This document shows positions 2,700 through 38,193 of a stretch of DNA of 50,332 nt, one piece after another (position 1 is the first letter of the stretch; the number at the start of each line of letters is the position of its first letter). The notes beneath the pieces are model-generated. The model was not told the DNA's origin. It worked only from the letters and a program-made list of their open reading frames with translations, and did not search any database. The translations under genes and the position numbers were made by a program. This DNA is from Girardia tigrina. Taxonomy: Eukaryota. The stretch spans positions 54,481 to 104,812 of the forward strand of contig MQRK01199850.1 of NCBI GenBank assembly GCA_001938485.1, in the 5' to 3' direction.

Positions 2700-2977
2700 T
2701 GTGGTGATGTCATTCCTCAAAACATTTAGTAATATTGAACTTCAATGATGTCAAATCTCCTGACATCACTACAGTTCAAATTCCGGTGATTTCATATGTC
2801 ATGAGATCACCAGAATGTGCAATTGCAAGGACAATTTCAATTGCATCAATTGACCCCGGGGCATATTATGTAATGTTGCCTTAATATAAAAGGCAAGATT
2901 TCCATATTTAATTGGTTAGCAAACCCCGATCAATATTTTATATAATAAATTTTATTATCTAGTTTCCGTTCTTTACA
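2700..2977 (+). repeat. 5' LTR of a gypsy element
   Basis: TGTGG...TTACA with TATAAAA and AATAAA inside, followed by a PBS-like TGGTGTCGGAA at 2979 and then gag. Confidence 0.6.
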
Positions 2978-10180: not shown

Positions 10181-10749
10181 ATTTTGTTATTTATATTAGT
10201 ATTTCCTATTTAATATTATTTTTTATTTTTACTTCAGTTTACTATAATAACACAAACGAAACTCGAACCAGAAGACAAAAAAAGTCTCATTGTAAAAATG
10301 AAATTTGATATTTTGGGATTTAACTGAATTCCAATTTTATTATCCAAAACTATATGAATTATATAATTTAATTTTTATTCAATTATCAATAAAGAAATTA
10401 TTCCAAATAATCAGGAATTTATAAAAAAAGATTTGAAAAATAAAATGTTATTATTTGAATAAGAAAGAATTTATTTTCTCAAAAACATTAGTTGACTTTT
10501 TTTCACTATATCTCTTATACTAAAAAACTTTTTTTAGTTATTTAGCAAAAAAGTTAATTGATATTATTTCAAAAAATTAAAATATATTATTATAGAAACA
10601 GTTTTTTTATTATATTTCCACGCAAAACTCATCATAATTAATCGGTGAAAGTTTCTGATCGACAATAATTAACTGTGATGAGAATCAAAATTTTCTTAAA
10701 AGAATAAAAAAGCTAAAAATAAGAGTTTATATTGAATATATATAGGGGG

Positions 10750-13700
10750 TGTGGACACCGAACAGGATGAAAAACAAAACTGGTCAAAGGATGAGCTCAT
10801 TGTAGCGAAAATACTTGGAGAAATGATTGGCGTCAACAGGTTATTTGCCTACTCAGACACTAAAAAATATTCAAAAGCCAAACGACTACAGAAGAGGATT
10901 CGGAAGTGGAAGACAGATCGCAATGATGGAGAAGGAAGAATACGGAGGAGAGCGAGAACATATAGAAAAAAACGACATTGGAGTAAGTTTTCATGCGCAT
11001 GAACCAGATCATATAAATTATATATATATATAGTAGTAGTAATATAAATTATATAAATAAAATAAATAATAAAGTTGATAATAATATAAATGCTAAAAAT
11101 AAAAAAATAATAAAAAAGAACAAAGTGAACCAAAACCCGATCTGGAACCAGAAGTAAGTCAGAAAGTCGTGAAATTTATAAAAAAGGAATCATTTAGTGA
11201 TAGAGAATTGCTAATAATTAATAATTGGGAAAATGTTCCAATTACATACGATAAATTACAGGTCGACCGAGTGTAAAAATAAGAATAGAAAACTTAGAAA
11301 TCGAATGTTTACTGGATACGGGTGCAGCGTTGAACGTTATGACGGAAGGAATATTAAAAAACTTAAATAACATAAGGGTGGAACAGATAAATCAGAGATT
11401 AAAGGCAGCAAATGGACTACAAATGGATGTCAGAAGAGAAATAGAAACGATAGTAAAGATTGAAAATTAAGCTGAGAAAATAAGATTTGTAATAGTGAAA
11501 AATTTGAGACCAGAGATGATCGGAGGAATACCATTGATGAAAGAGTTCGGAATAGAATTGCAATGGAAAGAGCGGAATTATCAGGAAACAGAGAGAACTA
11601 AAAAATGTGAAATTGAAGCTAAATTTGGAAAAGAAATCACCAATGAGAATCGCGTTCAAGGGGCATTAAAAGTGATAGACACAAAGAACGATAAAACACT
11701 AGAGCAAATAATTCACGAATATGGAAGAGTATTTATGTCAAACGATTGAGATATAGGCCTTACAAACTTGCTACAAAACAAAATAGAGACAACAGTGAGA
11801 CTCATAAACATAAAACCGAGAAGACAGCCAGTACATCTGGAAGACAAATTAGAAGAAGCTATAAAAAATTTGGAGAAAAACGAAATAATAAAACCATGTA
11901 ATTCTGAATGGAACACACCAATAGTGTGCGTGTGGAAAAAGGACAGGGACGAAATCAGATTGTGTCTGAATTTTATACAGTTAAATCGAATCACTAAGCC
12001 CCATGCAGAATATAGCTGAAATGATGGATAGATTACACGTCACAAAATATATTAGTAAAAGAGACTTAGGGAATGCATACTATCAAGAAGAATAGTACAA
12101 AGAATCACAGGAAAGAACGGTGTTCTCCACCAAGACAGGACTGTTTTGTTTTAAACGGATGCCTTTTGGCATAGCCGCAGCCCCAGGAACATTCCAAGAA
12201 CTAATGACAAAGGTGTTACAACCAATAAAGAAAGGGGCATCAGTTTATTTGGATGACATACTAATAGCGACAAGTACAAAGGAAGAACATTACAAGGTGA
12301 TAAGAGAAGTATTTGAGAGGATCCAACAAACAGGGCTAAGAATAAAACCAGCAAAATGTAAGATATTATGACCGGAAGTAAAATTTCTGGGACACATAAT
12401 AAATGACCTAGGGATACAGACAGATCCAGAAAAGTTTGCAGCGATAGAGAATTTCCAAAGGCCGAAATGTATTAAGAATTTGAGAAGTTTTTTTGGGAAT
12501 TTGTAACTATTATAGAAGGTTTATTAAAGGATATGCAAAGAAAGCCAAAGTATTAGAAGGAATGTATGGTTTAAATAAAGAAAAGTTAATTTGCATGCGA
12601 AAAAGCGTTTAACGACATGAAGGAAGGATTGATAACGGCACCAATACTGAGCTTCCCAGATTTCAAAAAACAATTTATTCTGGATACAGATGCCAGCTTT
12701 GACAGCATAAAGGCGGTACTGTCACAGATAATTGATTCGGGGAAAGAGCAAGTAATATCATATGGATCACATTCAGTGCCAGCACATGAAAAAGGTTATT
12801 GCATAACAAGCAAAGAAATTTTGGCAATTTTTTTATTTTTTTCAGCATTTCAACCATTATCTGTACGGGAAGAGATTTAAATTGAGAACGGATCATAAAG
12901 CTATAAAGTTCATGTATTATACAAAGAAACTCTTAACGGCTCAATTCCAAACGTGGATGAATTACTTAAGTAGTTTGGAGATCGACATAGAATATAGAAA
13001 GGGAGTGCTGCATGGCAACGCTGATATGTTATCAAGACAGAATTGCGACACATGTACACAATGCTAAATGGAACACGAAGAAGCAAAAAAAGGAAAAAAA
13101 ACACGACGAGATTATTAGCAGTGACTACGAGGAGTCAAGTCAGAGTGGGTATGAAAGAATGGATACCGAAAGAAAAAGAAGCGATCTTATCATACAAAAA
13201 CATAGATTATTGTGCCATGCGGGAGTCGAAAAAGTGTACCAATATCTGAGAGACAAGTTTGATATGGAAGAAGAAAAGAAAACGGTAAAAGAGGTTCATA
13301 GGATGATGCATGGAGTGTCAACGAACAAAGACAATAGCCACAAAAATAAAGGAAGAAAACATAAAAATAACAACATCAGAAATATTTGATAAAGTTTATA
13401 TAGACATCTGCCGACCATGGAATAAGGCAGTAAGAAAAGAAAGATACATCTTGGGAATAATTGACCATTTCAGTAAATACGTGAGCCTGACAGCAATTAA
13501 AAGACAAGATGAAGAGGCAATAGTACAAATGATATGACAGAAATGGATATTAAAATTTGGAGCACCAAAAGAGATCCACGTAGACTGCGAGAAATGTTTC
13601 GAAGCGAAAAAAGTAAAAGAAATGTTGGAAGCAAAAGGTATTGAATTGATTTTCTCTAGCCTATATCCCCATAAAACAAATGGGATAATTGAAAGGCAGT

Positions 13701-13777
13701 TTCGGACAATACGAGAATACATACATGAAAGTTTGAAAGAAAGAAATGATACAAGTGTGGCAGACATATTACCTTAA
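10750..13777 (+). mobile_element. Degenerate Ty3/gypsy pol (PR-RT-RNaseH-IN), gag absent
   Basis: LLDTGAA protease, SEWNTPIVCV, MPFGIAAAPGTFQ, YLDDILI, FILDTDAS, RTDHKA, HGNADMLSR, LCHAGVEK, IIDHFSKY. Many frameshifts. Cut off at a TTAA/piggyBac MITE. Confidence 0.93.
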
Positions 13778-14001
13778 CCCTTTACTGACTATTGATGCCA
13801 TATGGAATCATAATATATATCAGACTTGTATAGCCATCTATGAATGAATAGGGATAACATTTTTTATTTAGATCGATAAGGAAGATCGATAAGAAGATAT
13901 ATTTGTTATCAATTAAATTTTTACTCTAATTACTTTACTGCTTTCGCATATATTTTACTACATTTCAGTAAATTGATATTCTTAATTCAGCCAGGAAAGG
14001 G
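13778..14001. mobile_element. piggyBac-type MITE
   Basis: TTAA|CCCTTTACTGACT ... AGCCAGGAAAGGG|TTAA. Confidence 0.75.
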
Positions 14002-14371
14002 TTAATACAATCTTAATCACAGCTTTCGTATGATTGCATTCTAAACTAAATTGCTTAATGAATAAATTTTTATTATTTTAGCAAACCGAGACATAAATAA
14101 TTTATTAAAATATTTACTCAAAACTTATTGGATGAAAATTAAAATGATTATTAATTATTTTAAAAAATATTAATTTGATTTAATTATTAAAAATTGGAAA
14201 AATTAATTAACTTATTTAAAATTTTACCATTATTTGAATTTATAAATACATTTAAACATTACATATTTTGAGGAAATAAGAATTCAAATGTTAATCATTC
14301 ATCTGATTAGGAGAGACACAATTCCAAATCAACATATAACATTCTAACACAAAACATCAAACATTCGAAAT

Positions 14372-15985
14372 AGTATTTAATTTCCACTTTTGGTTAAAAA
14401 ATTTCCTCACAATAGGGATCGTCAGTTAAAATGAATATTTAAACAAAATTAAAAGTAATTTAAATGGTTTTCTGACTGTTACATCATAAATAATTTCCAT
14501 ATTTTTAAAAAAACTTAAACGTGTTTAGATAAATCACTTTGTATATTAAAGCATGGTTTTAATTGCTTAATAAATAATGCTTCAGTGATTATCCGCTCGA
14601 AATTTATGTCAAAATTTTTACTAAACACTTAGAATTCTTTTTCATAATTTACTTTTTCACAATCACGACAACTATTTATATGATCGAGAATGAAACTGTT
14701 TCTACTCATTTGAGTGTGTTCAGCTATTCTAGTACGGATATGACGATATGTTTATCCAATGTACAAGCATTCACACTTGTGACATTTAAACTGATAAACT
14801 AAATTATCTTGTACACTCAAAGGAGTTTGTGATTTATTGCTAAAATATCTCGATAATTTATTTGTAGTAAATATTACTCTAAGATTAAAACACATAAGTA
14901 TTCTTTTAATTAAATTTGTTTTATATCTTTTGATCCTTCAGAGTAAGGTTTTCTAACATTAGCCTGATCATCGTAACATCGATTATATTTGTTTCCTTAT
15001 TTTTACTTTCCATTGATTTTTTAAAAATTGAATAAACCGTATCTTTGATTATTTTACTGAAAAAGTTTTTGTTGTATCCATTATTCATAGTTCAATTAAT
15101 TCGTTCAGTCCTTCATCGACCTTCTCATATGATGATGATAAGCTCCAAATTCTATGAAACAATCTCTTAATCCTATTCCGGTTATACTTTGGATCACAGA
15201 AATTATTTGGCCCACTGTATAACCCCGTTTCCGTTGACTTTCTAAATACTTCCGTAACATAAACTTCTCTCTTCCTCTCGATTAATACATCCAAAAACGA
15301 AATCCTATCACCATTTTCAACTTCACATGTGATTTTTATATTTTGATGAAGTTTATTTACAAAATCAAGAAGCAAATTGATATGACATGATGTTTGGAAA
15401 TTAGGAAAATGTCATCTACCTATCTAGTGTAGTACAACAATAGGACCCCATCACACTCATTTAATCATACTTCGAGGCTTTGTAGAAAAATTTAAGCCAT
15501 AAAGGGGTTAATGGGGACCCCATGGCTACCCCATCGTTGGATAAGAAGAGTACATTTTTTGTGCTGAATTCTGGTAAAGATTTGCGAGCTTTGATACTCA
15601 TTGAAGATTTCTTATCAATAATCTGCTCCTCCCATAGTTTACCACAAATGCAAATTGTTTCATCCAATTGAACATTATTGAAAAGACTGACCACACCAAA
15701 AGACACCATTACTTCATCGGACCAAATCTTTTGCTTTATTATTTAGTTAACAAAATCAAAGCTGTCTTTACATTCTAAGGGGTTCGTAATTAAAAGCTTT
15801 AATAACTTTATAAATATTTTTGCAATCTTATATTATGCAGTGTTTATCATCGAAAGTACTGGGCGTATTAGTATACCTTCCTTATGAATTTTCGATAGAC
15901 CATATAATTTTGCTGTCTGGGATCCACTCATGAACAATAATCCTTTTAAAGAAGTATTTAATTTCCACTTTTGGTTAAAAAATTT
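14372..15985 (+). repeat. Perfect 33-bp direct repeat (14372-14404 and 15953-15985) bracketing the PLE
   Basis: agtatttaatttccacttttggttaaaaaattt is identical at both ends. Confidence 0.9.
14405..15952 (-). mobile_element. 5'-truncated Penelope-like element (RT + GIY-YIG endonuclease), degenerate
   Basis: LYGLSKIHKEGILIRPV, MVSFGVVSLFNNV, GVAMGSP, RYVDDI-like, ISFLDVLI, VFRKST, and LVYQFKCHKCECLYIG*TYRHIRTRIAEH..ITEALFIKQLKPCFN. Confidence 0.92.
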
Positions 15986-16019
<34 letters not shown>

Positions 16020-17709
16020 CCATTTTCATTTATTTTTGAAGGACTTCCATCGTTCAAATGACAAAGCTTAATTCAGAATTAATAACAGTTAGATTAACAA
16101 AAAATATTTTGGTAAATTATTTTTCATATTGGTAATTAAAAATACATTAAAAATATATTTAAAATTCATCTTTCTCTCATTTATTTTTTGAACTTAATAT
16201 GCTTTGGGATTTATAAAGACTCATTTCGGTTTTGATGGCGAATACTGATAAATTATTCAAAAAATATTTGACGAAGTCTTAACGATATTTATGTTAGAAA
16301 TGACCCAAAATCATTAAAACTAATTTTAAATATTTCATAATTGTAGTTAATAAATTAATTTATCTTTTATATTGATAAAATATTATTTATATTGAAAAAT
16401 AGTTTTTAATGAAAACATTTAATAATTGAATACTTCATTTTTTTAGTTCAATTCTTAAGACTTAAATTCGATTTAATTTTGGATTAAAAAAATAAAAGAA
16501 ATTATCTTTAAAAAAAGAATAATTTATAGATTATTTATTATTCTTTCAGTCTTGTTTAATTTACAGAAGAAAAAGAAATTAAGGGGTTTTATTGCAAGAA
16601 AAATACGAATATTGATTTAATAAATTATTTTTTTAAAAAATATACTAAAATATTTTCTATCTGATTAGATCAATCTCTTTATTTAAAATTCAAACATGTA
16701 AATGTGGAAACTTTTTACTCCTCTTTTATCAAATGGTTTGATGATGCGGAAAGATTATTACCGGTGCAGAAAATTTATTTTTTCATAATTAAAATTGATT
16801 CTCGTATGAAATGTGTTTCCGGTTTTGAATTTTTTTTCAATTTAACTTTTGAAAATTACTAAGAAAAATATTTTATAAGTATTTAGATTTTTTTAAAACA
16901 AAAATAAAAACTTCGATTGAAAACAATTTAATACTTTTTAATTATTTTTTTTAAATAATTTGTTTAAATTTTTTACATTCTTCAGATATGTGAGGATATT
17001 GGTATCAGACATTTTTTTTTCGAAAACTTGTCACTCAAAAAGGCCTTCATCGGAAACCATTTTTTCGAACGATAAATTCTTCGAATGAAACTTTTGTTTT
17101 GAAAATAACTAAAACATTTTCATATTTCATTTCTTTTCATATTTTATTTCTCATATAGCAATATTTATTGATATAGATATAAATTAATATTCTTATAATA
17201 ATTATATAATTTAAATTATAAATACAAATACGAGTATAATTACAAGTATAATTACAAAAGTAAATCAAGATTCATTCAAAGGTCAAAAAAGAGAAATAAA
17301 AAACATAAAATTGAAAATAATAAAATTATAAGACACAAGCAAATAAAAATAAATAGTGCACAAAAAATATAAAATAAAACAATTCAAAGTCACACAAACT
17401 GTTGCATGACTATAATTGAAAATATAAATATAGATATGTATATTTAGATGTAAATGTTTTTAGTGAGTTTTATCGAAATGTTGTGGTTTCTACAGATATC
17501 AAAACTTTCGACAAAACCATTCATTCCGGATTTTATTGGAAATCAAAACTTTTGTAGTCTTATTTGGTTAAGACCCAAATTCGTAAAAACAAGTAATTAT
17601 ATTTATCTCAGTTATTTTTTTGGTAATTTATTGGTAACTCAAATTTAATTGCAATTTTGTTTTTTTCATAATTTCCAATTTATTATTGCATGCAATTTTT
17701 GTTGTTATA

Positions 17710-19196
17710 CTTAGGCTGTCCCAAAAGTCCTCAGGTGAACTTTAAAAACACACTAATATTTTACCAAATTTAACCAAATTTGGACTGAATATTATTCAGA
17801 CTGTCATATATACTATGTTAAAATTTCAAAGCATAAAATTTGAAACTTGCCAAAAAAATATTATTATTATTTATTATATTACCAACAAAAAAAATTAGAT
17901 GCAGCGAATTTAAAAATTTATTTAAAAAAATATTTTAAAAATTTCTTAAGCAACAACATATTCGCCATTGTTGTCAATAACCAACTGACAATAGTTAAAA
18001 AGTTTATCTAGTTGATTTTTTAATGTTTCTGTTGATAAAGAATTAAAAAAGAATTTACAAGCTTCTTCAATTTCTTCATGTGATTTGAAAACATGATTAT
18101 TAAAACTTTTCTTCATTTTTGAAAACAAGAATCTGTCACAGATTAAAATCTGGACTATAGGGCGAATGATAAATTTTTTTCAATTTTTCTTCTTTCAAGA
18201 AAAAGAGTTGTTTCTTTGCTAGAATGAGGTATTATATTATCATGCCACCACTTAACTTCCTTTAGCTTGATACTGTTAGATCTAAGTTTCCGCCATTTTT
18301 CACCGGTGTCATGAACAAAGTTCACATTCACCTCGGAATCAATCTTGGTACCATATTGCAGTGCTTTTACATTAAAACGTTTGTTGCAGGTAAAGGTTAA
18401 GAAAACAAGAGATTTTTTATCAGTCATTGGCGATGGCTTTATCACTTTTGGTGGAACAGCATTAGAAGGAATCCAAACTTTGTGATCTTCTTTCTTTGCT
18501 CTACCTTGGAAAAAGACCCATGTCTCATCCTAGATCGCTATGTTGGAATATGCATCATCACCCATCTGTGAAATTACATGGCGTATATGCTTTACAGTGT
18601 TAATGCGTTGTTGTTTATTAGCAGCAGAAAGTTCGTGAGGGACCAAAACAGAGCAAACATTTTTGTAATGAAGCTTTTCACGCAAAATATTGTGGACTGT
18701 ATTTTTGCCTAAAGAAAGTTCATTTGGAGCTTCATCAATCACTTCTTTGACTGCTTTAATCTTTTCATTGCCTACTAATGACGGCCTGCCACTTTTTGAT
18801 GAATCGTCGAAGGACGTCCGCTTTTCTTTTTTAAAATCAGTCAACCATTGTTGAATAGTTTTCAGTGCTGGGTGATTTGCGTCTTCCCATGCCTGCTGAA
18901 GTTGCTGAAGAATTTCTGAAGCAGAGAATCCTCTTTTACTTTGAGTTAGAACAAAAAAACGTTGGCAAAATTTTTTTGTTTCCATTATTAAAAACCGCTT
19001 GATTTGAATTTGCTGCACTTTTAAAATTTCAATACTTTACTAAAACAAAATTTTACTTTTTTTTTAATTTTATGCTTTGAAATTTTAACACAGTATTTAT
19101 GACAGTTTGAATAATATTCAGTCCAAATTTGGTTAAATTTGGTAAAATATTAGTGTGTTTTTAAAGTTCACCTGAGGACTTTTGGGACAGCCTAAG
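17710..19196 (-). mobile_element. Full-length degenerate DD34D mariner with ~131-bp TIRs
   Basis: TIRs 17710-17840 and 19066-19196 (3 mismatches), TA flanks. Motifs SGRP, VLVPHEL, DETWVF, HDN, HSPYSPDFN. In-frame stop and frameshifts. Confidence 0.93.
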
Positions 19197-19446
19197 TATA
19201 ACTAATTTAAACGAGTTCACTCATTATAATTTATCTGTTAGCTTGTTTAGATAGTTTTAACAGTGTAAATAAAATATTGTTAATATAATTTGAAATAAAA
19301 ATATTTTTAATAAATTTAAAAACACAATACCTCTAACTAAATCGCTAAATAAAACAGATTTCAGTAAGTTAAGTTAAAATAAAATTTTTCAAAAAATAAT
19401 AAAATATTCTAATAAAACAATTTTTAATATGACTTTATAAATTTAA

Positions 19447-20839: not shown

Positions 20840-21966
20840 TTGTCCCAAAAGTTCCGGTCAAGAATGAAAAATACAATTTTTTGTGCAAGAATTTATTTTA
20901 AATAAATAACATTTAACCTTCAAAGTACAGTCCATCATTTTCGACTACTTTCTGCAAACATTCTGCAAGCTTTCAAATTTGGTCAAAGTACCATTCCGGC
21001 TTGCTTCAAAATGAAGAACTCTTGACATGCTTGTTCAACGTTATCGAATGCTTCGAAACGCCGGACTATCAAGAAGTTTTGCATGGATCGGAAGAGATTA
21101 TAGTCGGATGGAGCACAATCATGGCTGTAATCAGGATACGGTAGGATTTCGAGTCCATCCAACTCTTGGAACCTGCCCGTTGTCTTCTTGGCGCTATGCG
21201 GCTTGGCATTATCTTGCTGAAGCAGTGTACATTTTAGGTTGATTAAGGAAGAGTATTTCTCCTTGAGCTTCTTGTAGACACGGTCCAGCTGTTAACAATA
21301 GAACTCTGCATTGATGACCTGGCTGTTCTGAACAAACTCAAAATACACGACTCCCTCAAAGTTCCACCAGACACACAACATGATTTTCAAGCCAAATTGA
21401 TCTTGTTTTGGAACTGACGGCATTGCTTGACCCGGTGGAACCCATGGCTTGTCTCGGTAGAGGTTGACCAAGTAGACCCACTTCTCGTCGGACGTCACAA
21501 TTCGTTTCAAAAAGCGGTCATCTCTCGGATTCTGTAGCAGTTGTCGGCAAGTTCGAACTGTTTTATCGGCCTGTGTTTGGTGAGTTCGTGTGGATTTTGA
21601 CGCGGTTTCTTGTGCACAAAGTCGAGCTGCTTCAAATGTCAATGTATGGTTGACCTGCCAACTCCAAGCTTAAATGCCAAATCGCGAGTGCTTGACGAAG
21701 GCTTCATGTCAAACTCTGCTTGCAAGTCATCGTTATCCAATTTTGTTGATCGTACAGAACGAGGACTTTCCTTCAAGTCAAAGTTGCCTTCATTGAAACG
21801 CTTGAACCAATCAATTGCCGTACTTTTTCCAACCGTTTGTTTAGTTCAACTTTGCAAATTGCGTTGGCAGCATATCGTGTTATCAAGCCTTTCTTCCAAT
21901 AGTGACGCAACAACACACGGAATTCAAGCTTTGTAATCTCGTAGTCCATATATTGCTATAAATAAA

Positions 21967-21999
<33 letters not shown>

Positions 22000-22068
22000 A
22001 TATCAAATAAATAATGCCGAAAAGAAATTCGAAAAAAATATTGACCGGGAATTTTTATGAGAATCTAA
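20840..22068 (-). mobile_element. Near full-length degenerate mariner (DD34D type)
   Basis: FLKRIVTSDEKWVY, KIMLCVWWNFEGVVYFE, INAEFYC, QDNAKPH. Eroded TIRs similar to 500-1072. Confidence 0.92.
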
Positions 22069-23258
22069 TAATTGTGGGATAGTTTGTTTAGTTTGAGATT
22101 AAGTTATCTTTATACCAACTATCTCCCTGTTGCAATTTGATACTATAAAATGAAAGACATTAGTATATGCCAAACATTTTAGTACAAGAAAGGGAGAGAT
22201 TAAAATCTTCCAATAAGTTATAGGAACTCACCAAAGAATCAACTCAAAGTTTATATTTTTTTAACATTTAAAAAATATATTATTATAATCTATATAATTT
22301 ATAGTTTTAAAGTAACTTTATTTGAAAAAATTTCAAAATATATATGTTTAATATTTTGTAAATAAATTAATTTTGACAATTTAATATATTTTTGTTTTCA
22401 TTTGCTTTCTATTCTTTTGTTATTTCAATTATCAACGACATTCATTGAATTGAAACAATAAAAAAAATTCTTGATTTTATAATTTAGTTTTCTTTTGTTT
22501 TTCAAACTAACGGATCTCAAAAAAAAACATTTCGTAAAATAAAAAAAAATTAAATTTTTTAATTATTAAAATTATGCTTTTCAAAAAATTAAATTCCCAA
22601 ATGCTTTGAGAGTGTTCATATTGATTTCTCTGGAGATTGATTAATTTTCTTAGGAAAGAAAAAATGTTTTCGATGATGATAAATAAACTAATACTAAAAA
22701 AACAAAAAAAAGAAAAAAAATACTTAAAAAATTACAGGTGTATTTTGAATATTTTTTTTAAAAATATTTTTATTATATATTTTACTTTAGCGAGACATTT
22801 TGATGTAACTTATATTAATTAAAATATTATTAAAATTATTTCAATTAATAATTTATTCTGAAGTTCAAAGCTAATTTGAATCCATTTATTTTAAATTTTA
22901 ATGTATAATATGTATACTTATAATCAAAATTTATTTCTTTTAAATTTTATTAAATATTAATTCAAAAATTTAAACTTATAGAATAAATAAAAGAATTTTT
23001 AAAATACATATAAAACCATATTTCAAGCAAAAAAATTTTTTAATTAAAAAAGGTTTTATTTATTTTATTTTTCTTTGAAGTATTAGGGTAAAAATTGATG
23101 TAATGCAAAGATGAAAGTTACACATTATTAAATGCAATTATTTTATTTATTTTTATTTATAAAGTTAATTAGGAAACAATTTTTATTTATAATAATTTTT
23201 GTCAAATCTTTAAAAATATTAGTAAAATATTAAATATTCAAAACTTGTTATTCCTTAT

Positions 23259-23334
23259 TGTAAAATAAGATGATTTTTTCGATTTTCAAAAACTATATTA
23301 TTCAAATAAATTAGAATTAATCCATTAAATTTCA
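23259..23334 (-). repeat. 3' LTR (76 bp)
   Basis: Minus strand TGAAATTT...TTTTACA, preceded by the PPT and followed by TSD ATAAG. Confidence 0.88.
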
Positions 23335-24639
23335 TTCCCCCATGATCTCAAGATCGAATCACATAATCGTCCAGATACTGAAGGGGCTTCCGTACCAGCA
23401 CCGGTCGTTGAACGGAATCTCTAGCTACCTCTTGCGTTGTCGGTCAACTCATTTCGTCTTCACTGTCTGAAATGCGATCATCGGAATCCACTAACATCAG
23501 TTGTCGATTGTCCACTGCTCTCCTGATGTTGGATATATGCCTCAAGATTCCATCATCATCCAGCTCCACTCCAACTGCAGACTTCAACGATGTAATTGCA
23601 TGCGGTCCCGTACATGGTTCATTGCATTTCCCGCCGACTCTCAAATACATATTCTCACCAATGCTGAATTGTTTTTTCTCCGTAGCACCATACTCATCAT
23701 TCGAGATGCACTCCGAGATGAATTTACATTCAACCTGATGCTCTTCTCGAATCATTGGCAGTCAAGAATTGGCATGAAACATCAATTCATAGGGCCCCGC
23801 ATCCCGGTGACCCGTCGTACTGTTGTACCAAAACATACATTCGCTGATCGACTTTGCAGATCTCGACGCCATTGTCTTAATGTTGTGGTGATTTCTCTCG
23901 CACATCCCATTCCTTTGATATCGATAGGCTGCCATATCTTTATTATAATTTATCTTAATACTATAATCTATTAAAATCAATATTAACAATCGGTTCTAGA
24001 ATTTTCTGAAGTCTCTTGAAATTAATTTAATTAAATATTAAATTAATTTATGGTGTGTTGTTTTAATAATTTGTTGGGGTCCGAAAAGTATTAACCCCTT
24101 ATAAATCACTAGCATAGAAAAATGTCATAAGAAGAAAAAGAAAGACGACAACAGTACATAATACATATATTTAAATGTTATAATGACAAGTCAGGTCCTC
24201 CTCCCGCATCACGATCCACCAGAAGATCCCCAGCGGTTGAGAAAAAGCCATTAGTCTGAATAAGTACCGAATTAAGTGACACGGACTCGAAAAATAAATA
24301 AAATCGCCTACCGAGCCTCCCCAAAAGAATTAAGAGACCAGTTGATCCTTCAATTGAAGCTCTTGCCGAGTCACATCCTTGACCAAAATCAGCAAACCGA
24401 TGGGATGCTCCCAGACGGAAATATACCCCTGTAAAAAATCGGAAAATTAATAAAAACGAACAAAGCTTAATTAAAAAACTTACCATGAGTCAGCCGTAAT
24501 TCCAATAATAGAAATCGGCTGACAATTTTCCTGAGTCATCGATGACCTGGCTGCATACAAACTCCAAACACACCGACAAGAAATCTATAATAAAATAAAA
24601 TTTTCAAAATTTCAAAAAATATTTTGAAACACGCTTACC

Positions 24640-24765
24640 CGGTTTGACCAATCCGCATCTCAGAAAATTTGATACAACTAGTTGGCAGACATTGGTTGGT
24701 TAATAAAGAATGCAAGGGTGTCCCTCCAACACTATATAGTCAGCGATCACTCTGCCACTTATTGA
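24640..24765 (+). promoter_or_regulatory. Putative Pol II promoter (CCAAT boxes + TATA) in the insert
   Basis: ccaat (~24648), attgg (~24691) and tatata (24733-24738) lie upstream of the candidate exon. Motif evidence only. Confidence 0.3.
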
Positions 24766-25281
24766 ACAATATTTAGAACATTTTTTGAACAACGATATTC
24801 TGAACAACTTGAACAACATTTTACAAACATTTTAAACGAACAACGTTAAACGATTATTATTTTTTTTGAATCACCCTTTTGAACAACTATTACTGCCGTT
24901 ACGTTTGGAGAAGATAAGAAAACGACAAGAAATCACACGAAGACAAAAGAAATTCAACTAAACGACGCGCAGCCGAGGATAACCGAGCGAGAGTTCAACA
25001 CAAGAATCGACGAGAAAAAAACGAGTGCTTCGACCGAACGACGCACCAAGGCGCGAAAATTAGTCAGCAATTGCCGACACATTATTCAACCGACCTCCGG
25101 AGACCATTATCGCCGTAAATTTAATTTATGTTTGCTTAATTATATAAAGTTATTATTGATTAAAATACATGTATGAAAGTGTTCTAATGCGTTATATTTT
25201 ATTTTATTAACCGATTCATCACTTCTTTATTCCCTATTAGGTAGAATAAACCCGTCGTCGCCACCGATCGTCGTCACCGTT

Positions 25282-25485
25282 ATGACGTCCAGCATTGTAG
25301 ACCAATTTATTGAACATTTAGAGAATACTCTGGGAATTTTCCACGAAGCCGAGGTGGATGAAAATAATAATGCCCTTCGGGACGAATTACAATTAGTCAT
25401 TATTGACGTAACGTCAATAACGCTGAGCGAAATGCTCGAGTCGAGCGAGTATTACGGCCCAATCACGCAGGGCGAAAATCGATGA
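25282..25485 (+). CDS. Small acidic orphan protein (67 aa) inside the insert; possibly exon 2 of a spliced transcript
   Basis: Intact ATG-TGA ORF in a CpG-rich island, with an upstream GT..AG intron candidate (25115-25240) and AATAAA at 25682. No recognisable domain. Confidence 0.45.
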   Translation: MTSSIVDQFIEHLENTLGIFHEAEVDENNNALRDELQLVIIDVTSITLSEMLESSEYYGPITQGENR

Positions 25486-28397
25486 TCGAAATTGTTACTG
25501 AAAATATGATTTTGTGAATACGAGTTTTATTTTCATTTCTAGTATCTTAAAGTTTATTTAATTTATAAGTCTATCCTAATTTTAGTTTCGTTTAAAGTTT
25601 AGCCTAAAGTTTCGTTTAAAGTTTAGTTTAGATTGAATTAGCGAATTTTAATGTTAGAATCAGATGTAATGAGTGATAAATAATAAATGAAATTAGAATA
25701 TTACTTCCATCCGAGACGCCCTCGGGATCATGTAGAATGATTTCTTTTAGGGATTGAGGCGAAAACCGAGTAAGATTATTCTAAAACGTTATTGTTAGGT
25801 TATTATTTGAAACCATCATTCAATGTTGTTAGCGGAATTGAAACGACTAAACAAATAGAGTTTAGATTTACTTGATAACTTGATTATAGGGTTTATATAT
25901 TTTAATAATTTATTTAATAATTGAATTTTATAATTGATTTAGTTGTTTTATGGTTTATTTAATAACTTAATTTTATTGATTTAGTTGTTTCATGGTTTAT
26001 AACTTAATTTTATGATTGATTTATTTTATAACTCAATTTGATCCACGAAATTAATAATTGAGAATCAATTCAAAATTATATTACCGAGAATTAATCTAAC
26101 TAAAGTATGAAGTTAATTTGTTGAAAATAAAATGATTTCAATAATAAAAGTACATGAAATTAGATAATAACAAAACAAAAACCTTTCTAAATCCGTTTAC
26201 ATATATTTTCACTGTTACAAAAGGTTACAGACTCGTAAAAAGGGGGCTTGATTGATATTTCTATCACAAAAATTATGAAATAATTCAATATTGAAGTTGG
26301 AACAACTTAAAATTGTTTCAAAACTATCTATTAATTTAATTCTAAATTTAGCGAGAATAAATCTAAAATCGGAAATCAACCTACTATCAGTGTTAAAAAC
26401 ATTTTAGAGGAAGTAATTGAGTAATGATTGATCCAATGAGCGAGTTAATTACGAGTCTCTTTAGGAAATAGAGCTGCCGATATTAATGTAAACATATTAG
26501 TCACTCATATAATGAAAGTATAACCGACAAGACACGAATGAAATAGGCGTAATTTCCGAACAATAAAATTCACCATACCTGGGAGAGTAAGGGGCTGATT
26601 GTCGATATACTGCTTAGGTGAATAAATCAATAGACATTGCCGTAAGTCACAGAAACGACACAACAATGCTGCAATTTTACTAGAACACATACACAACAGT
26701 GCAACAAGTTTTACATCACATAAAGATGATGATTCTGAGTAGATCATCCCAGAGCGACACTTTGCTAGGTGGGGGCCCATAGCTCATCCCATCTTTATAC
26801 GAACCCGCAGGCCCTTCAGACTCGGCACTGCTAGTCAGATGTCGAGCGAGAAAAGGCGTCCGACCCGTTTAAATAGGCAAATGTAAATAAACTTCGTAAA
26901 TCGGTGTTGGGTTGTGATTGACCCTTAACAATCACTGGGGGCTCAGGAGTCAACAGAAATGTTTTCACTCGAAACGGGCGTGACAAATTGAATGTTGAAC
27001 ACAATTTTGAATTTTGATTTAAATAAATCTTTATAAATTATTCTTGTGTTCTAACAGAACACTTGCTCGATTCTCCATTTATCTAGCAACCGTCTCATTG
27101 GGTCACTTCAGTAAACAGCCGCATTATCTGAAAAGAAATATTTCAGTGGTCCAAATTTAGAGCATACGCTATCTATATGCCAACTTATTTCCTCGGCGGA
27201 TTCACTACACAACTTTCTCCAAATACAAAATATTGTTGCTGAATCCACTAAGGTCAGATGCGCGATACAGTTGAAATAAGTCACATCGCTATAAAGTTGG
27301 TACCATACCTAGTCAGTTGACAATTTCCCATGTCGAAACTCAATTCATGGGGCTAGACAGATTTTTGAACAGTCAAGACATTGCTTGATAACTTCCTTAA
27401 CTTGATCCGACTTTACTGCATTAGTCCAATATTTTTCCCTCAACAGTTCACTCATCCTGTTGACTCCAAAGTGACAGATATCATGATTTTTCTTGATCTC
27501 ATCAATCCTTGGATACTGATTTCCTTCAATTGCGTTTACTTCCACTTTCCTGTTTAGCCATTGTTTAGGAACCGTGGTCAATTAATCTGCCATATTCAAT
27601 TGAGATTTCACCAATTCCAGTTTCACCTTCAGTTTTTCTTGATCTTTCAACTCTCTCATGATATCGAATCTTCGGCGTTCCAAATGTTCAGATAATATGC
27701 CGGTTCTTGGGTTCTGTGGATTCTTGAATACTGCCATGAGCCATCCATACACTGTTACTGAGTCCTTCATCAGCCTGAACTTATGAAAACCCTAGGTTAT
27801 TGCCAAGTCTAGTCCCCTTATATTCACATCCAGTTCAATCATATTAATATGGCTTGTATCGTCTTCTTTCCTTAACCAAGAGGTGTCTTCAACGATATCA
27901 CCGTTCTCACACACTAGTACGCCCATTTCTATACTACTTGCATCTGTCCAAATGACAACATTATTATTACAATTTACCACCCACTTGCCTGTTACTGGAT
28001 CTCCATCCATCCTCAGCTTTTTACAGATTACATTAACTTTCTCTATGATGTCTTTTCGCACTAATTCATCCCAGCCTATCTTTCATTTTGCGGGTAATCT
28101 CTGAATGTAGACACAAGCAAATCGTAACCATCCTGCAACTGGTACATGGCCTATCCACACCCCAAAAATTCCATGTACTTCTCTTTTCGTTGCTTTCTCA
28201 AGTTCCCTAGTTACGAGCTCTTGGTCTCCAGGTGTCGTATGCCGGCCCGTCCAACAGTATGACCAAGCATGAGACTTCTTTTTCCATTAGCCCGTCTACC
28301 TCGATGGCAAACGCGAATCTGAACGATCCAACGTTCGACGTCCTCCCCACCATAAAATTTCTTCAAATTACTGATGGATTTCATTGTCGCGATAGCT

Positions 28398-28473
28398 TTT
28401 AAAATAAGATGATTTTTTCGATTTTCAAAAACTATATTATTCAAACAAATTAGAATTAATCTATTAAATTACA
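28398..28473 (-). repeat. 5' LTR (76 bp)
   Basis: Minus strand TGTAATTT...TTTTAAA, preceded by TSD ATAAG. The gag ATG follows 12 bp later. Confidence 0.88.
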
Positions 28474-29631
28474 CTTATAAAAAAAGTTAATTTCTACAGT
28501 TATACATCTAAAGTTTTATAAATCTATTCTAAGATCTAACATCTTATTGGAAAAAGAATAAGGGTTTTTTATAGAAAAGAACTTTTCGTTGTAAGGAGCC
28601 TCATGCAATGTCGTATATCTTTGCTTTATAGAATTCTTTAAATAAATTACTCTACGTGATTAAAGTATTATTATAATATTGTATCTCTTTTTTATTTTTT
28701 TCATTTAAGGCATCAAAAATATGATCAATTACCAGCGTAAATCTAAAGGGACATTAAATTGCTGCTAATAATTAAATAAAATTTAGTTCATGAAAAATTT
28801 TCAAGAAATACTGTTTAGAATTCCGCTAATGCTTACACAATTTTTAATATGTAAAGTGAACAAAATTCTACGAGTTACGTAAATATTTTAGGAAAAATCC
28901 GTTTATACAAGTTGGTCGAGAAAATTTGAATGATTGATCGAACATAGGCTTTTTAAATGATTTAAATAAATGAACCGTTAAAATTTTTAATAAAAATCAA
29001 AAAGAAATTAAATTAAATTTAATTTCTTAATTTTAAATAATCCCCAGAAAATCACGTCGATGTGATAATTTTTCTTGATGTTTAAATATAAATATGTATC
29101 TATATTTTGTTAATTTATTGTTAAAAATCTCTTTTAAAATAATCTTGTAAAGCAGAATCACCGTGTTCGCGTCAAATCGATGAACTGAATTGTGAAATTT
29201 ATTAAAAAAATTGTTATTCAAAAAACATTTAATTTGAGTTTATAAATTTTATTGTAAAAAGAATTTATAATTGTTAATTGGAAATTGTTTGAAAGGTTGA
29301 TTTGTTTAAATCAATAAATTAAATCATAATTGTGAATTGTAAATTTGATTACGTTGATATTTAGTGATTGGAATTTGAATAAATATTAGTCGGCGAATTG
29401 GTTTTGTTTTTTTGAAGAGAATAAATAAAAAATATCGGAAATAATTGCGAAAATTTGAAATCATAATTTAATGAATTGAAAGCTAATTTAATAAATCCAA
29501 ATTTCCATTTTGGTAGCAGAGCGCAGTTTAATTTTAGAATTAAAGAAGATAATGATTCAAGCGACACAGTCGCAAATTACGAAATTGAATCTAATTGAAT
29601 CTAAACTGTTATGAAAATAAATGTGTATTAA

Positions 29632-30714: not shown

Positions 30715-32600
30715 TTTAATTTTATGATATTAAGTTGATAAATTATTCATGTTCCTTTATAGGCTTTGTGACTTTTTCTACCACATCTATAAATATGACT
30801 GTGGTACTCCGAAGAAAAACTCTAAAAAATAAATTGTTAATTAATGTGTAAAAATGTATTAAGAAATGCATAAATAAAAAATGATCATTATGAACAACCT
30901 GTTTAAATGGTTTGGTGTTCGTTCATTCCAAACCCGTTTGATCCACGTTCGTTCATCCCGAATTTTTTCGTTTGTTCATTCCGAATTTATGTTAAAGGAC
31001 CAACTTTGGTAGATTTACCTTTTTTGGTTGTTTTAATTTACTTTTTTTCTTTTTTCTTTTTTTGCATAAGATTACATATAAACCCGACATTTAAATACAA
31101 AATAGTTACATACATAAATCTTAGAATTTAATTGAAAAAATTTTTTTATCTTATAAAAAGAAAGTGAATTTCAGCAGAGTACAAAAGTGAGCAGATAGAA
31201 GTGTTGAGTTTAGTGACAGATATTATATTTAATTAATTTTTTCCAACATTTCAATTTTCCTTTATTCTCTGAAAAGATTCCTATTTGAACTTAACTATTC
31301 AGTATATTAATTGTAAGATTAAGTCTATGTTAGTAGTTGAATTATTAAGAATAAACAAGAGTTAAGAAGTATAAGTTCGGCTCAATAGATTTAGTAAGTT
31401 TCGGCTCAATTAACGTTAAATAGGGTATAGGTTAAGGTTAAAGGGCTTATATAAATAATTTTTATATTTTCTTTCTTTGTGTGAAGTATTATTATTTGTA
31501 CTGTGATAGATTTAAAATATTATTATATTGATAAATTGTTGTCTTTTGATTTGGCTTTGAAGAAATTTAAATTTAATAAATTAATAAATTGAGAATAAAA
31601 GTAATTAGTAAATAAAGATCTTTTATTAAATAAATATAATATCTGTCCCTATATACAACACTTTTATTTACTCACTTTTATACTCTGCTGAACTTCACCT
31701 TCTTTTATAAGATAAAGAAGTTTTTTCAATTAAATTCTAAGATGTAAGTATGTAACTATTATCTTATAAAAAAAATTAAAAAAACCAAAAAAGGTAAATT
31801 TACCAAAGTTTGTCCTTTAAAATAAATTTAGGATGAAAGAACAGGATACCGTTTAAATATATGTTCAAAATTTGAATGGCAATGAAAAAAATATTTCGTC
31901 ACCATGTTCATCTTTTACTTTATTTTTAATAACCGATGTGTTTCATCCTTTGAAACCGCGCTTAACATAAAAATGTGCGCGAATTCAAAGTTCACGATTA
32001 GTTACAACAGATGGCTCGAACCGTTGATGCAGCACTGAAGTAACAAGGGGATTCTTGTGGTCTCCTAACAAACGGTCTTCTGTAGCACCGTCTATGCAAT
32101 CCTAAACTGATACTTGTTAATTGAATTCGGGAGTCTCCGTCCACCACCGATCCGAACGTCTTCTGAGATACAAACCTCATCTTTAGGCACGACGATATGA
32201 TGACTCCGCTTAGCAGCCGGAACGAGCTCTTAAACAGTCAGAAGCCGTCGAAGCGTAACAGGATTGCACGGTTTGTCGCACAGCCGATTGGGGCGGTGGA
32301 CCGGACCAAAAGTAACCTATCGAAATATTTTTTTGCAAATAATCAATTACTAAAAGAATTGACAATTTATTTAAATAAACAAAAAAAATTTCATGAAGTT
32401 TTTTATGAGATTCTTAAAAGTTAAGAAAGATTTAAAATTATAATAGCGTATCTAATATTTTTTGTTTAAATAATGAAATTGGAGATTCTTGCAAATTATT
32501 TGAAAATTTTTCCATTATTTATTGATGTTTTAGTAGACTTTCAGAGTGGGTCTTTGTTTTGGAATGTTTTGAAGAACACGTTGGTTTCCAAATTCTTTCA
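30715..32600. repeat. Copy 1 of a ~0.9-kb inverted duplication (carries the 942-bp foldback insertion)
   Basis: Reverse-complement match to 34522-35475, e.g. the shared peptide MTPLSSRxELLNSQKPSKRN..FVAQPIGAVD and matching flanks. Confidence 0.88.
30909..31850. mobile_element. Foldback MITE with long TIRs and an 8-bp TSD (Merlin- or Mutator-like)
   Basis: GGT...ACC ends, gtttaaat duplicated at 30901-30908 and 31851-31858, arms of roughly 200-300 bp. Absent from the paralogous copy near 35300. Confidence 0.88.
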
Positions 32601-34010
32601 GAAATGTCTTTACTAATGTCTTACAAATTTCTTTGTGCACTTGATGATTCACGAACAAACAAAATATTTTTTTTAAAATTATTTTTATGTTTTTAAAGTA
32701 TTAACTTAAAAAAATTTTATTATAAGATGAAAAAATGAATAAATAAAAAAATAATGAAATTAACCAAAAACCAGATTTTACATATTCGTTCTTTCCTACA
32801 CAGCGAAGATAGAGTATACAGAATGTATTCCTCGGTAAATTTATGTATTTTAAAATACAATTTACGAAAATGAAAAATATTTAAAATTATTTGAAAATAT
32901 TCTTTAAAATACATGTAAAATGGTGAAGCTATGCCTTATTATTGCCTTCAACAGATCACTCAAGTGAACTCATACATGTTTTATTTTCTTTAGAACAATT
33001 TTATTTTAATTTCCTCTTATTCTGAAAATGTTTTACAATCGAAAGTTTTTCTAAATCATGTAATAGTTAAAAAATACATATAAGCGGAATAAATAATAAA
33101 TTGATTAAAAACCTGACTTCATTATTTATATATTTTTTTTAATTTATTTCCAATTTGTGAATATTAAATTTTTTTTCAAGTATGATTTCCTGAGATAAAC
33201 CAAAATCTAATCTTTATAAAAAGAAATATTCTCAGTGATTTATTGTTCCTACACTTGTTTCATTTCTGTCAAAGTAAATCATAAAATTTTTTTTGGAAAT
33301 TAATAAATAATTATATAACTGAATTTATGTGAAAATATAAATAAATATACAAAATAAATAAAATTAATAAATTAAATTTGCAAAGGTAAATAAAATAATT
33401 CATAATGACGAATTAATATTTTTTTTAATTGTCATAAAAATGTCATTTCGTAATTTTTATGTAAATATTATTTTTAAAATTTAATTTTCTTGGCAAATAA
33501 CCCTTCATAATTTAAAAAAAATAAGAGATAATATACGATAATTATTGTGCCAATAAATCATAAATAGTTAATAAATTAATTAATTAATTATTTTCAAAAT
33601 AAATCCAGGGGAAATATCTTTTGTGTTTAAAATCATTCATTCATAAATATATTAATTGAAGTTTTATTTTAATTATATTTTTAATAACATCAAAAATATT
33701 AAAAGAAAATATTTACTTTTTACATTTTTTTATAAATAACTTAAAAATCGAGAAAAATGATATCTAAATAATTTAATCGAAATTATATTTAAATTGATCA
33801 AATATTAAAATGAAGATCATATTAAATTATTTATTCTTTTGATTTATCCTTTAGATTCATTAAACTAAACACTAAGAGATGTAATATGTGGGGTCTCAAA
33901 TCTTTAATGTTGTTATTATGCATTTTTGAAAACTGAATAACTTCATTTCACATAAAAATTGCCAAGTTTAGACGGATTTTCCAATTTTTTTCAAAGTAAA
34001 TTTAATATAA

Positions 34011-34418
34011 CGGATAACATGAAATAGTAGGACACCTACTATTTTAATAGTAGGTGGAAAAAAATTGAAAAGGCGCCCAATATTGGTTTACACCTACTAT
34101 TTGGTGCTTTTGTTTTGANNNNNNNNNNNNNNNNNNNNNNNNNNNNNNNNNNNNNNNNNNNNNNNNNNNNNNNNNNNNNNNNNNNNNNNNNNNNNNNNNN
34201 NNNNNNNNNNNNNNNNNNNNNNNNNNNNNNNNNNNNNNNNNNNNNNNNNNNNNNNNNNNNNNNNNNNNNNNNNNNNNNNNNNNNNNNNNNNNNNNNNNNN
34301 NNNNNNNNGATACACCTACTATTTGATTCCACCTACTATTTTAATAGTAGGTGGAAAATTTTTTGAAAACTTCATTACACCTACTATTTCATGTCCACCT
34401 ACTATTTGATGTTATCCG
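34011..34418. mobile_element. MITE with TIRs and iterated cacctactattt motifs, spanning a gap
   Basis: cggataacatgaaatagtagg ... cctactatttgatgttatccg. Confidence 0.7.
34119..34308. other. Assembly gap
   Basis: Run of N. Confidence 1.
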
Positions 34419-34521
34419 TTAATTTTGTTTTTAAAATGAGTAAATTTATCTTTGAACACCATGTTTTTATATTTTAAACAAGTAAAAATTCCAATCAACA
34501 ACGAAAGTTGTAAATACATAT

Positions 34522-35475
34522 ATGAAAAAAATTGGAAACCAACGTGGTCTTCAAAACATTCCAAAAAAATGCCCACTCTAAAAGTCTACTAAAACATCAA
34601 TAAATAATGGAAAAATTTTCAAATGATTTACAAGAAATTCCATTTTCATTATTTAGACAAAAATATTGGATACGCTATTATAATTTTAAATCTTTCTTAA
34701 CTTTTAAGAATCTCAATAAAAAAACTTAATGAAAATTTTTTTTGTTTATTTAAATAAATTGTCAATCCTTTGAGCAATTGATTATTTGCAAAAAATATTT
34801 CGATAGGGTAATTTTGGTCCAGTCCACCGCCCCAATCGGCTGTGCGACGAACCGTGCAATCGTGTTACGCTTCGACGGCTTCTGACTGTTTAAAAGCTCG
34901 TCCCGGCTGCTAAGTGGAGTCATCGTATCATCGAGCATAACAATGAGGTCTGTATCCCAGAAGACGTCCAGATCAGTGGTGGACGGAGATCCCTGTTCGT
35001 TGGGGACTACTGGGACCCGGTCAGAGAATTCAATTAACAAGTTTAAGTTTTTGATTGCATGGACGACAGAAGACCATTTGTGAGAAGACCACAAGAATCC
35101 CCTTTTGATTCGATGCGGGATAAACGATTCGAGCCGTCCGTTGAAACTCGTCATGATCTTCTTTCAAATTCGCGCACATTTTGATGTTAAGCGCGGTTTC
35201 AATGGATGAAACATATTGATTATTAAAAATGAAGTAAAAGATTAACATGGTGACAAAATATTATTTGTTTTTAAATTGCCAGTCAAATTTTGTACATGTA
35301 TTTAAACAGGTTCTTCATATTGCACATTTTTTATTTATGCATTTCTTAAATACATTTTTTACAAATTAATTAAAAATTTATTTTTAAAGGTTTTTCTGTT
35401 TATAGATGAGGTCGAAAAAGTCACAAAGCTTATAAAGGAACATGAATAATTCATCATTTTAATATAATAAAATAT
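34522..35475. repeat. Copy 2 of the inverted duplication
   Basis: Reverse-complement match to 30715-32600 without the foldback insertion. Confidence 0.88.
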
Positions 35476-37520: not shown

Positions 37521-38193
37521 TTGTAGATGTTATGCCGAATTTGTATAATTGCCAAATTCACGAACTCGGAAATTTTTTTAAGAAATTTTTTATTCAATTA
37601 ATGTTATTATTTAATATGAAAAAATATGTATCTAATATGAAAAAAAGCAATTTAATATGAAAAATTATCAACTTATTATGAAAAAATATTGATTCAATAC
37701 GAAAAAAATCAATTTAATTTGAAAAAATATCGATTTAATAAGAAAAAAATCAATTTAATTTGAAAAAAATATCGATTTAATATGAAAAATGCTTTCAAAA
37801 TACAAACGTTTGTAATTCACTTGCCACCAAGGAAGAAGTTTAAATAACTATGAATAAAAATTTTACATTTGTAATCTATTTTGCATAATAAATTAAGATT
37901 TTTTGTATTAATAAAATAATTAAATATTAATTAAATTTATTTTTTTCATATTATATTGATAATCTTTAATGATAAATTGATATTTTTGTCATAATAAATA
38001 CAGTATTTTTGATATTAAATTGATCATTTTTCATGTTACATACATATTTATTCATATTAAATAGATAATCTTTCATTTTAAATTGAGAAATTTTCATTTC
38101 GAAATGAAAATTTATCATATAAATATTGAAATCGGCAAAAATTGACTAGTTCACAAACTCGGCAATTACATAAATTCGGCATAACATAGACAC
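37521..38193. mobile_element. Foldback-type MITE with internal ~20-bp tandem repeats
   Basis: TIRs atgttatgccgaattt..aattgcc / ggcaatt..aaattcggcataacat. The left half has aaaaatatcgatttaatatg-like units and the right half has their reverse complement. Confidence 0.72.

Follow-up and report, generated by a model that had tools for sequence, protein, structure and literature searches.

What interrupts the integrase gene of a gypsy-type retrotransposon in Girardia tigrina, and does the interrupting DNA carry genes of its own? The locus lies in a stretch of 50,332 nucleotides (assembly GCA_001938485.1, contig MQRK01199850.1, positions 54,481 to 104,812), which was analyzed as a whole and is referred to below as the window. 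A preliminary description, made from the letters alone, had noted that the integrase reading frame breaks off and resumes about 3.1 kb further on, and it read the intervening DNA as a 5'-truncated long terminal repeat (LTR) of a giant retroelement carrying accessory genes or as a fragment of a virus-like element. We found that the insert is composite and that its inner part, at 24072 to 26985, is most likely a solo LTR, a single end-repeat left by a large gypsy-type retrotransposon. The reading we favor, with modest confidence, is that nested insertions struck the gypsy integrase, that the inner one is a 2,914-bp solo LTR, and that the long U3 (unique 3' region) of this LTR houses a spliced regulatory accessory unit on the opposite strand.

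The window is AT-rich animal DNA (GC 28%; CpG observed/expected ratio [o/e], 1.07) crowded with decayed gypsy and mariner pieces. Evidence from other copies came from contigs of public sequencing runs (X1, X2, X3, X9, and X10) aligned to the window. Three of the 12 runs listed in the run search contained part of it, and none is recorded as RNA. X1 and X2 are DNA runs. X3 is classed as RNA by an automated guess only; it has a poly(A) end elsewhere, and its contigs carry no strand information.

Two nested elements interrupt the integrase

Both the break in the integrase frame and the insert proved real. The pol region of the host element is on the minus strand and aligns with its relative P0026 (984 aa) in two blocks: residues 402 to 791 correspond to 28226 to 27057, before the insert (83% identity, several stops), and residues 793 to 984 correspond to 23932 to 23357, the integrase after the insert (86% identity). 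Because the alignment resumes across the break with exactly one residue missed, the insert extends from 23933 to 27056, with one host codon (3 bases) lost and no target duplication. Contigs in X1, X2, and X3 join 23932 directly to 27057 and represent empty sites with an uninterrupted integrase. The absence of a transposable-element enzyme from the insert was likewise borne out: none of five host-family proteins matched at E ≤ 1, and Pfam returned nothing near its cut-off for the insert frames tested.

A second set of empty-site contigs marks another pair of junctions inside this insert. A joint between 24067 and 26986, with four shared letters and a single AATT left, is found in three X2 contigs and one X3 contig; a second X3 contig joins 24071 to 26999. 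These joints therefore delimit the inner element as 24072 to 26985 (2,914 bp, TGTTGGG..CGTGACA, AATT 4-bp duplication, no terminal inverted repeat), which we assign tentatively to the plus strand. It is nested within an AT-rich, ~206-bp remnant of another repeat. The left part of this outer repeat (23933 to 24071, plus strand) is AT-rich, is cut on its 5' side, has no target duplication, and ends in the left AATT. The right part (26986 to 27056, plus strand) starts with the right AATT, followed by AATAAA..TTGTGTTCTAACA with an LTR-like 3' end; the remnant terminates in AATAAA..TTCTAACA. Since a 1,605-nt X3 contig (record 6) carries 23935 to 24046 in its middle, the outer repeat is what is left of one end of a longer repeat, which may have been another LTR that lost its left side or a 5'-truncated non-LTR element of which the tail is present. 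The LTR-like terminus previously seen at the right edge of the insert (AATAAA..CTAACA) is present, but it is part of the outer repeat and not of the inner element. A 1.4-kb LTR running from TGTTAGAA at 25652 to 27056 was considered and dropped, as the empty sites place the junctions at 24072 and 26985.

No run contig spans the whole stretch, as would be expected of an assembly chimera or of patterns arisen by chance. Two clean nested junctions, matching duplications, and independent empty sites make that explanation extremely improbable.

A solo LTR is the most likely identity of the inner element

At the ends of the inner element, TG and CA stand exactly at the junctions fixed by the empty-site contigs (chance, 0.0025), and AATT flanks the element on both sides and occurs once at the empty site, which identifies it as a 4-bp duplication, within the 4 to 6 bp of gypsy solo LTRs. 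Only 11 of 40 terminal letters are complementary, so there is no inverted repeat. The terminal letters agree with the animal gypsy LTR consensus TGTTRNR..YNYAACA, as given in PMC3601003, at seven of seven positions on the left and six of seven on the right. No enzyme frame was found in the element, either by Pfam on the frames tested or by comparison with host-family proteins. In these respects it resembles the animal Ty3/Gypsy (Metaviridae) solo LTRs described in PMC3601003, which have TG..CA ends, AATAAA followed by a GT-rich stretch, a conserved R-U5 (repeat and unique 5' region) with a variable U3, and no enzyme. The flatworm example ta-TRIM/lennie is also alike in its 4-bp duplication, reported for 52 of 57 ta-TRIM cases in E. 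multilocularis (PMC4558846).

The same ends bear on a different origin, a non-autonomous DNA element mobilized by an integrase-like transposase of the Ginger type, in which introns would be kept on either strand. TGT..ACA ends, a 4-bp duplication, and a length of 2.6 to 7 kb agree with the published Ginger elements, and Ginger2 favors AT-rich targets (PMC2836005). However, the inverted repeats described there measure 40 to 297 bp, far from the poor complementarity found here; the target AATT is unlike the CCGG/CCGT or RTATAY of Ginger; and the inner element has a poly(A) module at one end. We consider this origin very unlikely. KolobokP was rejected as a candidate, since it needs RR..YY ends and a TTAA duplication and the inner element has TG..CA and AATT.

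The right end of the element forms a module shared with a very abundant family (26741 to 26985, plus strand). It holds a TATA-like run at ~26868, AATAAA at 26886, and a GT-rich stretch at 26905 to 26919, with ~80 bp remaining to the CA end, and to judge from these motifs it is the probable core promoter, R, and U5. Other copies show TATAAAG at the TATA-like run (loose end of a contig). Animal gypsy LTRs are described as having AATAAA and then a GT-rich stretch, as found here at 26886 to 26985 (PMC3601003). Summed X1 depth was ~750,000 at 26756 to 26979, 14,000 to 19,000 at 24292 to 24739, and 1,150 to 1,290 at 25636 to 26531, against 37 to 90 for unique-flank contigs; the element is repetitive, although summed contig depth is not a copy number. 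These steps reflect a widely common end and a variable body, which is what LTRs usually show, R-U5 being conserved and U3 variable. To the left of 26743, the loose ends of the family are AT-rich and discordant (0.47). The window holds no second copy of the inner element. We regard it as fairly likely that the LTR reads from left to right, in plus orientation.

The two ends of the inner element also resemble each other. In direct orientation, 24072 to 24150 and 26905 to 26985 are alike in 47 of 90 columns (p ~0.09 with anchors fixed), which is possibly the trace of an old duplication. If these pieces were themselves LTRs of ~80 bp, the inner element would be a whole non-autonomous LTR element, comparable to a terminal-repeat retrotransposon in miniature (TRIM) or a large retrotransposon derivative (LARD). 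Both pieces begin with TGTTGGG and end with GACA, none of 2,000 free shuffles reached their likeness, and the host element itself has 76-bp LTRs. Once the anchors are fixed, however, 180 of 2,000 shuffles score equally, and neither a primer site nor a purine tract was found inside the two pieces. Moreover, the older host LTRs differ at only four of 76 positions, and a younger pair should be near-identical. A TRIM or LARD is accordingly a highly improbable identity for the inner element.

Two observations speak against a plus-oriented solo LTR. The left end mirrors the 3' end on the minus strand in weaker form (AATATA, GT-rich stretch, ~80 bp), and among the run contigs no copy of the inner element was seen next to a primer site, a purine tract, or gag-pol. 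The parent of the solo LTR can be pictured as a giant retroelement. The earlier idea of a multi-kb LTR with small genes came close, but not its 5' truncation: the LTR is complete, having TG..CA ends and a 4-bp duplication that belong to it alone. The alternative of a virus-like element with tandem mini-genes found no support, as protein scans of viral contigs (none of 36 candidates confirmed) and a viral fold search were blank.

A probable spliced unit lies on the opposite strand of the LTR

The left part of the inner element contains a putative four-exon unit on the minus strand (24150 to 24770), with exons at ~24770/24710 to 24639, 24584 to 24484, 24428 to 24312, and 24255 to ~24150, the outer limits being approximate predictions. 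Intron A (24585 to 24638; 54 nt, GTAAGC..TTATAG) is skipped in one X3 contig, and intron B (24256 to 24311; 56 nt, GTAGGC..ATTCAG) is skipped in two (~24254 to 24311). Intron M (24429 to 24483; 55 nt, GTAAGT..TTACAG) is predicted only: X3 contig 7 stops at 24429 with no joint listed, and an X10 contig continues through the intron. Long DNA contigs from X1 and X2 retain intron B. The three motifs, of 54 to 56 nt, lie within 400 bp on the minus strand, and none of 3,000 shuffles reached three minus-strand GT-AG motifs of 48 to 65 nt in 500 bp. By the same rule there is one motif on the plus strand of the whole inner element, and there are 18 in the window on both strands (0.18 per kb per strand). 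A palindromic TATATA is located at 24733 to 24738; this motif and the TATAAA at 24100, both listed in the preliminary description, are present in the sequence.

That description had placed a first mini-gene at 24179 to 24499 on the plus strand, as a basic, proline-rich frame. The frame in question (SGPPPASR) is interrupted by three stops, and it is the minus strand that bears the splice signals in this region, so this claim fell; the first mini-gene is probably on the opposite strand. Likely, a small intron-containing transcript from that strand regulates the element, which would be its putative function. In X1 the depth of the antisense region is ~10 times that of the middle of the element, and pieces of the region were found in X9 and X10.

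Several points count against a spliced antisense unit. The skips occur in X3 alone, a run whose RNA status is guessed and whose contigs are strandless. Intron A is supported by one contig, with 30 letters on its short side. For intron B, the cut was shifted two bases to give GT-AG ends (the tool's cut lies two bases to the left), and the bridging letters match neither placement exactly. Once the skips had been noticed, the rule for calling introns was loosened a single time, which raised the number of motifs from two to three. Finally, the joints listed for the DNA runs are 15 of 142, so that intron-less DNA copies are possible; even if present, such copies would imply that some minus-strand RNA had once been spliced.

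The depth profile raises a further alternative, namely that the spliced module (~24120 to 24770) is a separate repeat or a captured host gene that rides in U3 as a passenger without a role. The step from 14,000 to 19,000 over the module to ~1,200 in the middle would fit, and in long X1 and X2 contigs the match begins at 24118, the 83 letters before it being different. No internal ends or duplication were found around the module, though, and the frame searched has no host-gene homologue. In addition, an X3 contig links 24598 to 26770, which would tie the spliced and the end module together in another copy, albeit through only 28 AT-rich letters. On this balance a passenger is unlikely.

We judge a solo LTR in reverse orientation to be unlikely to the same degree. 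The spliced RNA would then be the element's own sense transcript, starting at ~24710 to 24770, with a long, intron-bearing R and an 80-bp U5 ending at 24072. The minus strand indeed offers TATATA at 24738 and AATATA with a GT/T-rich stretch near 24150 to 24170, the spliced X3 contig 7 stops at 24151, and of the reversed ends TGTCACG fits the TGTNANR given for rGmr1 and CCCAACA fits YNYAACA (PMC3601003). Yet the minus strand lacks AATAAA and ATTAAA below 25125. The most widely common part of the element is its right end, and there the TATA-like, AATAAA, and GT-rich motifs are on the plus strand. If R held three introns that were spliced efficiently, copying would also tend to remove them.

Coding capacity of the antisense unit

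The best spliced frame with an ATG runs from 24658 to 24253 (~82 codons); a second spliced antisense frame lacks an initial ATG and contains two stops. In exon C, three of the four listed differences are at third positions of the best frame and two of them are silent, which is not significant. Over the 30-letter loose end of one X10 contig the minus frame is uninterrupted and the plus frame meets a stop, a weak observation made by eye. Coding is opposed by an in-frame stop at 24538 in the best frame of this copy, by the coincidence of its third positions in exon C with the third positions of a plus-strand frame, and by the lack of a homologue of this frame in protein and Pfam searches. An unspliced minus frame of 102 aa gave four candidate matches, none significant. 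That the unit codes for a protein is somewhat less likely than not.

The plus-strand open reading frame and its surroundings

A second mini-gene had been described to the right of the first, composed of a GT-AG intron, an intact acidic open reading frame (ORF) of 67 aa, and a poly(A) signal. The ORF (25282 to 25485, plus strand) is present and is intact in one other copy, the metagenome-derived protein P0001 (91% identity, same stop). Its length, however, is within chance, as 317 of 500 shuffles contained an ATG ORF of at least 67 aa, and there is no further homologue: a PDB sequence search gave a best E of 1.3, and an Atlas search with P0001 gave no usable match. Fold prediction returned a low-confidence helical hairpin (predicted local distance difference test, 63; predicted template modeling score, 0.33), with no viral match at E ≤ 0.001. 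Two X3 contigs cover the ORF with 34 and 18 differences and no gaps. Four of eight listed base differences, taken from the best-supported rows only, are silent, against an expected ~1 in 4; this is not significant. Four giant proteins matched by an 80-aa frame at first resembled retroelement polyproteins and were set aside as bacterial surface repeat proteins, each score being the sum of 11 to 21 weak stretches. It is conceivable, if doubtful, that the 67-aa ORF is a second micro-gene of the U3.

The intron candidate ahead of the ORF (25115 to 25240, plus strand, 126 nt) has GT..AG ends and good motifs, but it was not seen spliced: no joint of 25114 to 25241 is listed, and both X3 contigs displayed at the acceptor enter the intron. 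X3 gives no cover at 25077 to 25183, and this proves nothing about the intron. Splicing of 24883 to 25114 onto 25241 to 25485 would yield ~158 open codons, with no ATG before 25282, and the stretch made up of these two segments is the sole CpG-enriched patch (o/e 2.0). Of three CpG islands claimed for the insert, one is CpG-rich (o/e 2.03), and the others, at 0.99 and 0.89 against 1.07 for the window, are simply GC-richer patches. The AATAAA at 25682 exists, but the plus strand of the inner element has 12 occurrences of this hexamer.

How an antisense unit could persist and act within an LTR

According to the model we favor, a full-length element would have integrated with a 4-bp duplication, and recombination between its two LTRs, an established mechanism (PMC4558846), would have left one of them. 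If this LTR is read from left to right, its last 245 bp would hold the core promoter, the poly(A) signal, and U5. Everything left of ~26870 would be U3, for which the 3' end of the genomic RNA would serve as the template in copying. A promoter near the TATATA at 24733 to 24738 would fire leftwards and give a four-exon RNA ending near 24150. Minus-strand introns would go unseen by the spliceosome on genomic RNA and so would persist in every new copy, whereas spliced introns on the same strand would tend to be lost on copying through RNA. The combination of three minus-strand introns with an unspliced plus-strand candidate matches the expectation that antisense introns survive copying. The product would most probably tune the expression of the element itself, acting either as a small protein of ~82 residues or as an RNA able to pair with the U3 tail of the genomic RNA. 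A regulatory role is the most likely one, given the parallels in retroviral antisense genes and in the antisense ORFs of plant Retand.

Known systems share parts of this arrangement. At 2.9 kb, the inner element is far above the LTR models of PMC3601003, and it differs from those LTRs by a three-intron antisense unit wholly inside it. The ta-TRIM solo LTRs differ in that the splicing described for them proceeds in the sense direction into flanking DNA (PMC4558846). A counterpart in size class is the planarian giant gypsy element Burro, with an internal region of up to 25 kb and a total of >30 kb, hence LTRs of some kb (PMC6431247). Burro elements also occur in thousands of copies and carry accessory ORFs (PMC6431247), and a flatworm host is probably shared as well. 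Their polyprotein is Gag-Env-like-protease-reverse transcriptase-RNase H-integrase in a giant internal region, and the window holds the LTR-like part only. Compared by published description only, the Burro accessory ORFs differ in being internal, upstream of gag, and not in the LTR (PMC6431247).

Plant Retand, Grande, and RIRE2 elements have accessory genes antisense to gag-pol, for which a regulatory function has been proposed (PMC11963269). These ORFs are long, occupy the interval from pol to the 3' LTR, and have a TRP28 domain, and the main text of that study mentions no intron in them; the unit described here is inside the LTR, short, and multi-exon. Antisense RNA from an LTR promoter is also produced in human T-cell leukemia virus type 1 (HTLV-1 hbz), HTLV-2 (aph-2), and human immunodeficiency virus type 1 (the HIV-1 antisense transcript), and the hbz and aph-2 RNAs are spliced (PMC10186651). 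As reviewed there, the promoter activity of LTRs is often bidirectional, and the antisense units of retroviruses are active both as RNA and as protein. The viral units have no sequence relation to the one found here, extend from the 3' LTR into the internal genome, and do not survive in solo LTRs (PMC10186651), whereas all exons of the G. tigrina unit are apparently inside the LTR. The latter comparison concerns the minus strand. For the plus strand the nearest analogue of the 67-aa sense ORF, rather than of the antisense unit, is mouse mammary tumor virus sag, a gene on the sense strand in the U3 of a long retroviral LTR that encodes a known protein.

Solo LTRs, nesting, and antisense accessories are already known, and known antisense accessories are in the internal region or run from the LTR into it. 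What would be new is a multi-intron unit apparently wholly inside an LTR; we found no case of a multi-intron gene inside an LTR in the open literature, a scope that leaves Repbase entries outside. The host is an animal with adult stem cells and somatic control by PIWI-interacting RNAs. If the unit is confirmed and is under selection, solo LTRs would be working genes and not bare promoters, and confirmation would allow a direct test of retroelement self-limitation by antisense RNA versus a small protein. If it is only a passenger, the locus is a well-mapped but routine repeat. A bolder reading, which we hold to be rather unlikely, is that a family of giant flatworm retroelements carries a cassette of two genes in its LTR, one antisense with three introns and the other a sense micro-gene, placed back to back and sharing one promoter. 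The introns would be kept by facing away from the genomic RNA, and each solo LTR would stay a complete, expressible gene. Hundreds of scattered regulator genes would then outlive the loss of gag-pol.

The host element and other repeats in the window

Searches in other collections yielded little related material. Run X4, from a different organism and sampled at 1%, gave short AT-rich matches only, a DNA pattern scan of metagenomes found none, and a protein scan of metagenome contigs confirmed none of 513 candidates. A pattern match in IMG/VR (L001) was an unrelated phage without a match to the window, and the single Rfam match was due to chance (E 0.4).

The element that received the insertions is an internally deleted gypsy-type element on the minus strand (23259 to 28473), bounded by the 76-bp LTRs compared above (23259 to 23334 and 28398 to 28473) and flanked by a 5-bp target duplication, CTTAT, at 23254 to 23258 and 28474 to 28478. 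A purine tract adjoins its 3' LTR, and it retains the decayed end of a reverse transcriptase (RT), RNase H, and integrase. Without the insert it measures ~2.1 kb, most of gag-pol having been deleted; the deletion has fused the beginning of gag with the end of RT, and a primer site is not evident after the 5' LTR. Contig depth shows the host family to be highly repeated. Its relatives P0024 to P0026 bear RVT_1, DUF7047, RNase H, and rve, with DUF7047 between RT and RNase H (Pfam).

Two further decayed gypsy elements (2963 to 5191 and 8272 to 13773) contain a DUF7041 gag, an RT, and an integrase with an H2C2 finger; the second has a strongly purine-skewed stretch at 11000 to 13500. A mariner-like element at 17704 to 19202 has a broken transposase between 137-bp inverted repeats that are 98% identical. 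Two related mariner relics (505 to 1074 and 20840 to 22070) are 79 to 82% alike, with a Transposase_1 match at 21295 to 21669. An inverted pair of 800 bp (31851 to 32613 and 34510 to 35307; 84%) surrounds an assembly gap (N run at 34119 to 34308). A 316-bp repeat without TG..CA ends occurs in two copies at 96% identity (40536 to 40849 and 44748 to 45063), and a 50-bp part of it recurs at 44080. Finally, a fold-back structure at 37527 to 38187 has arms made of arrays of a 21-bp unit in opposite orientation.

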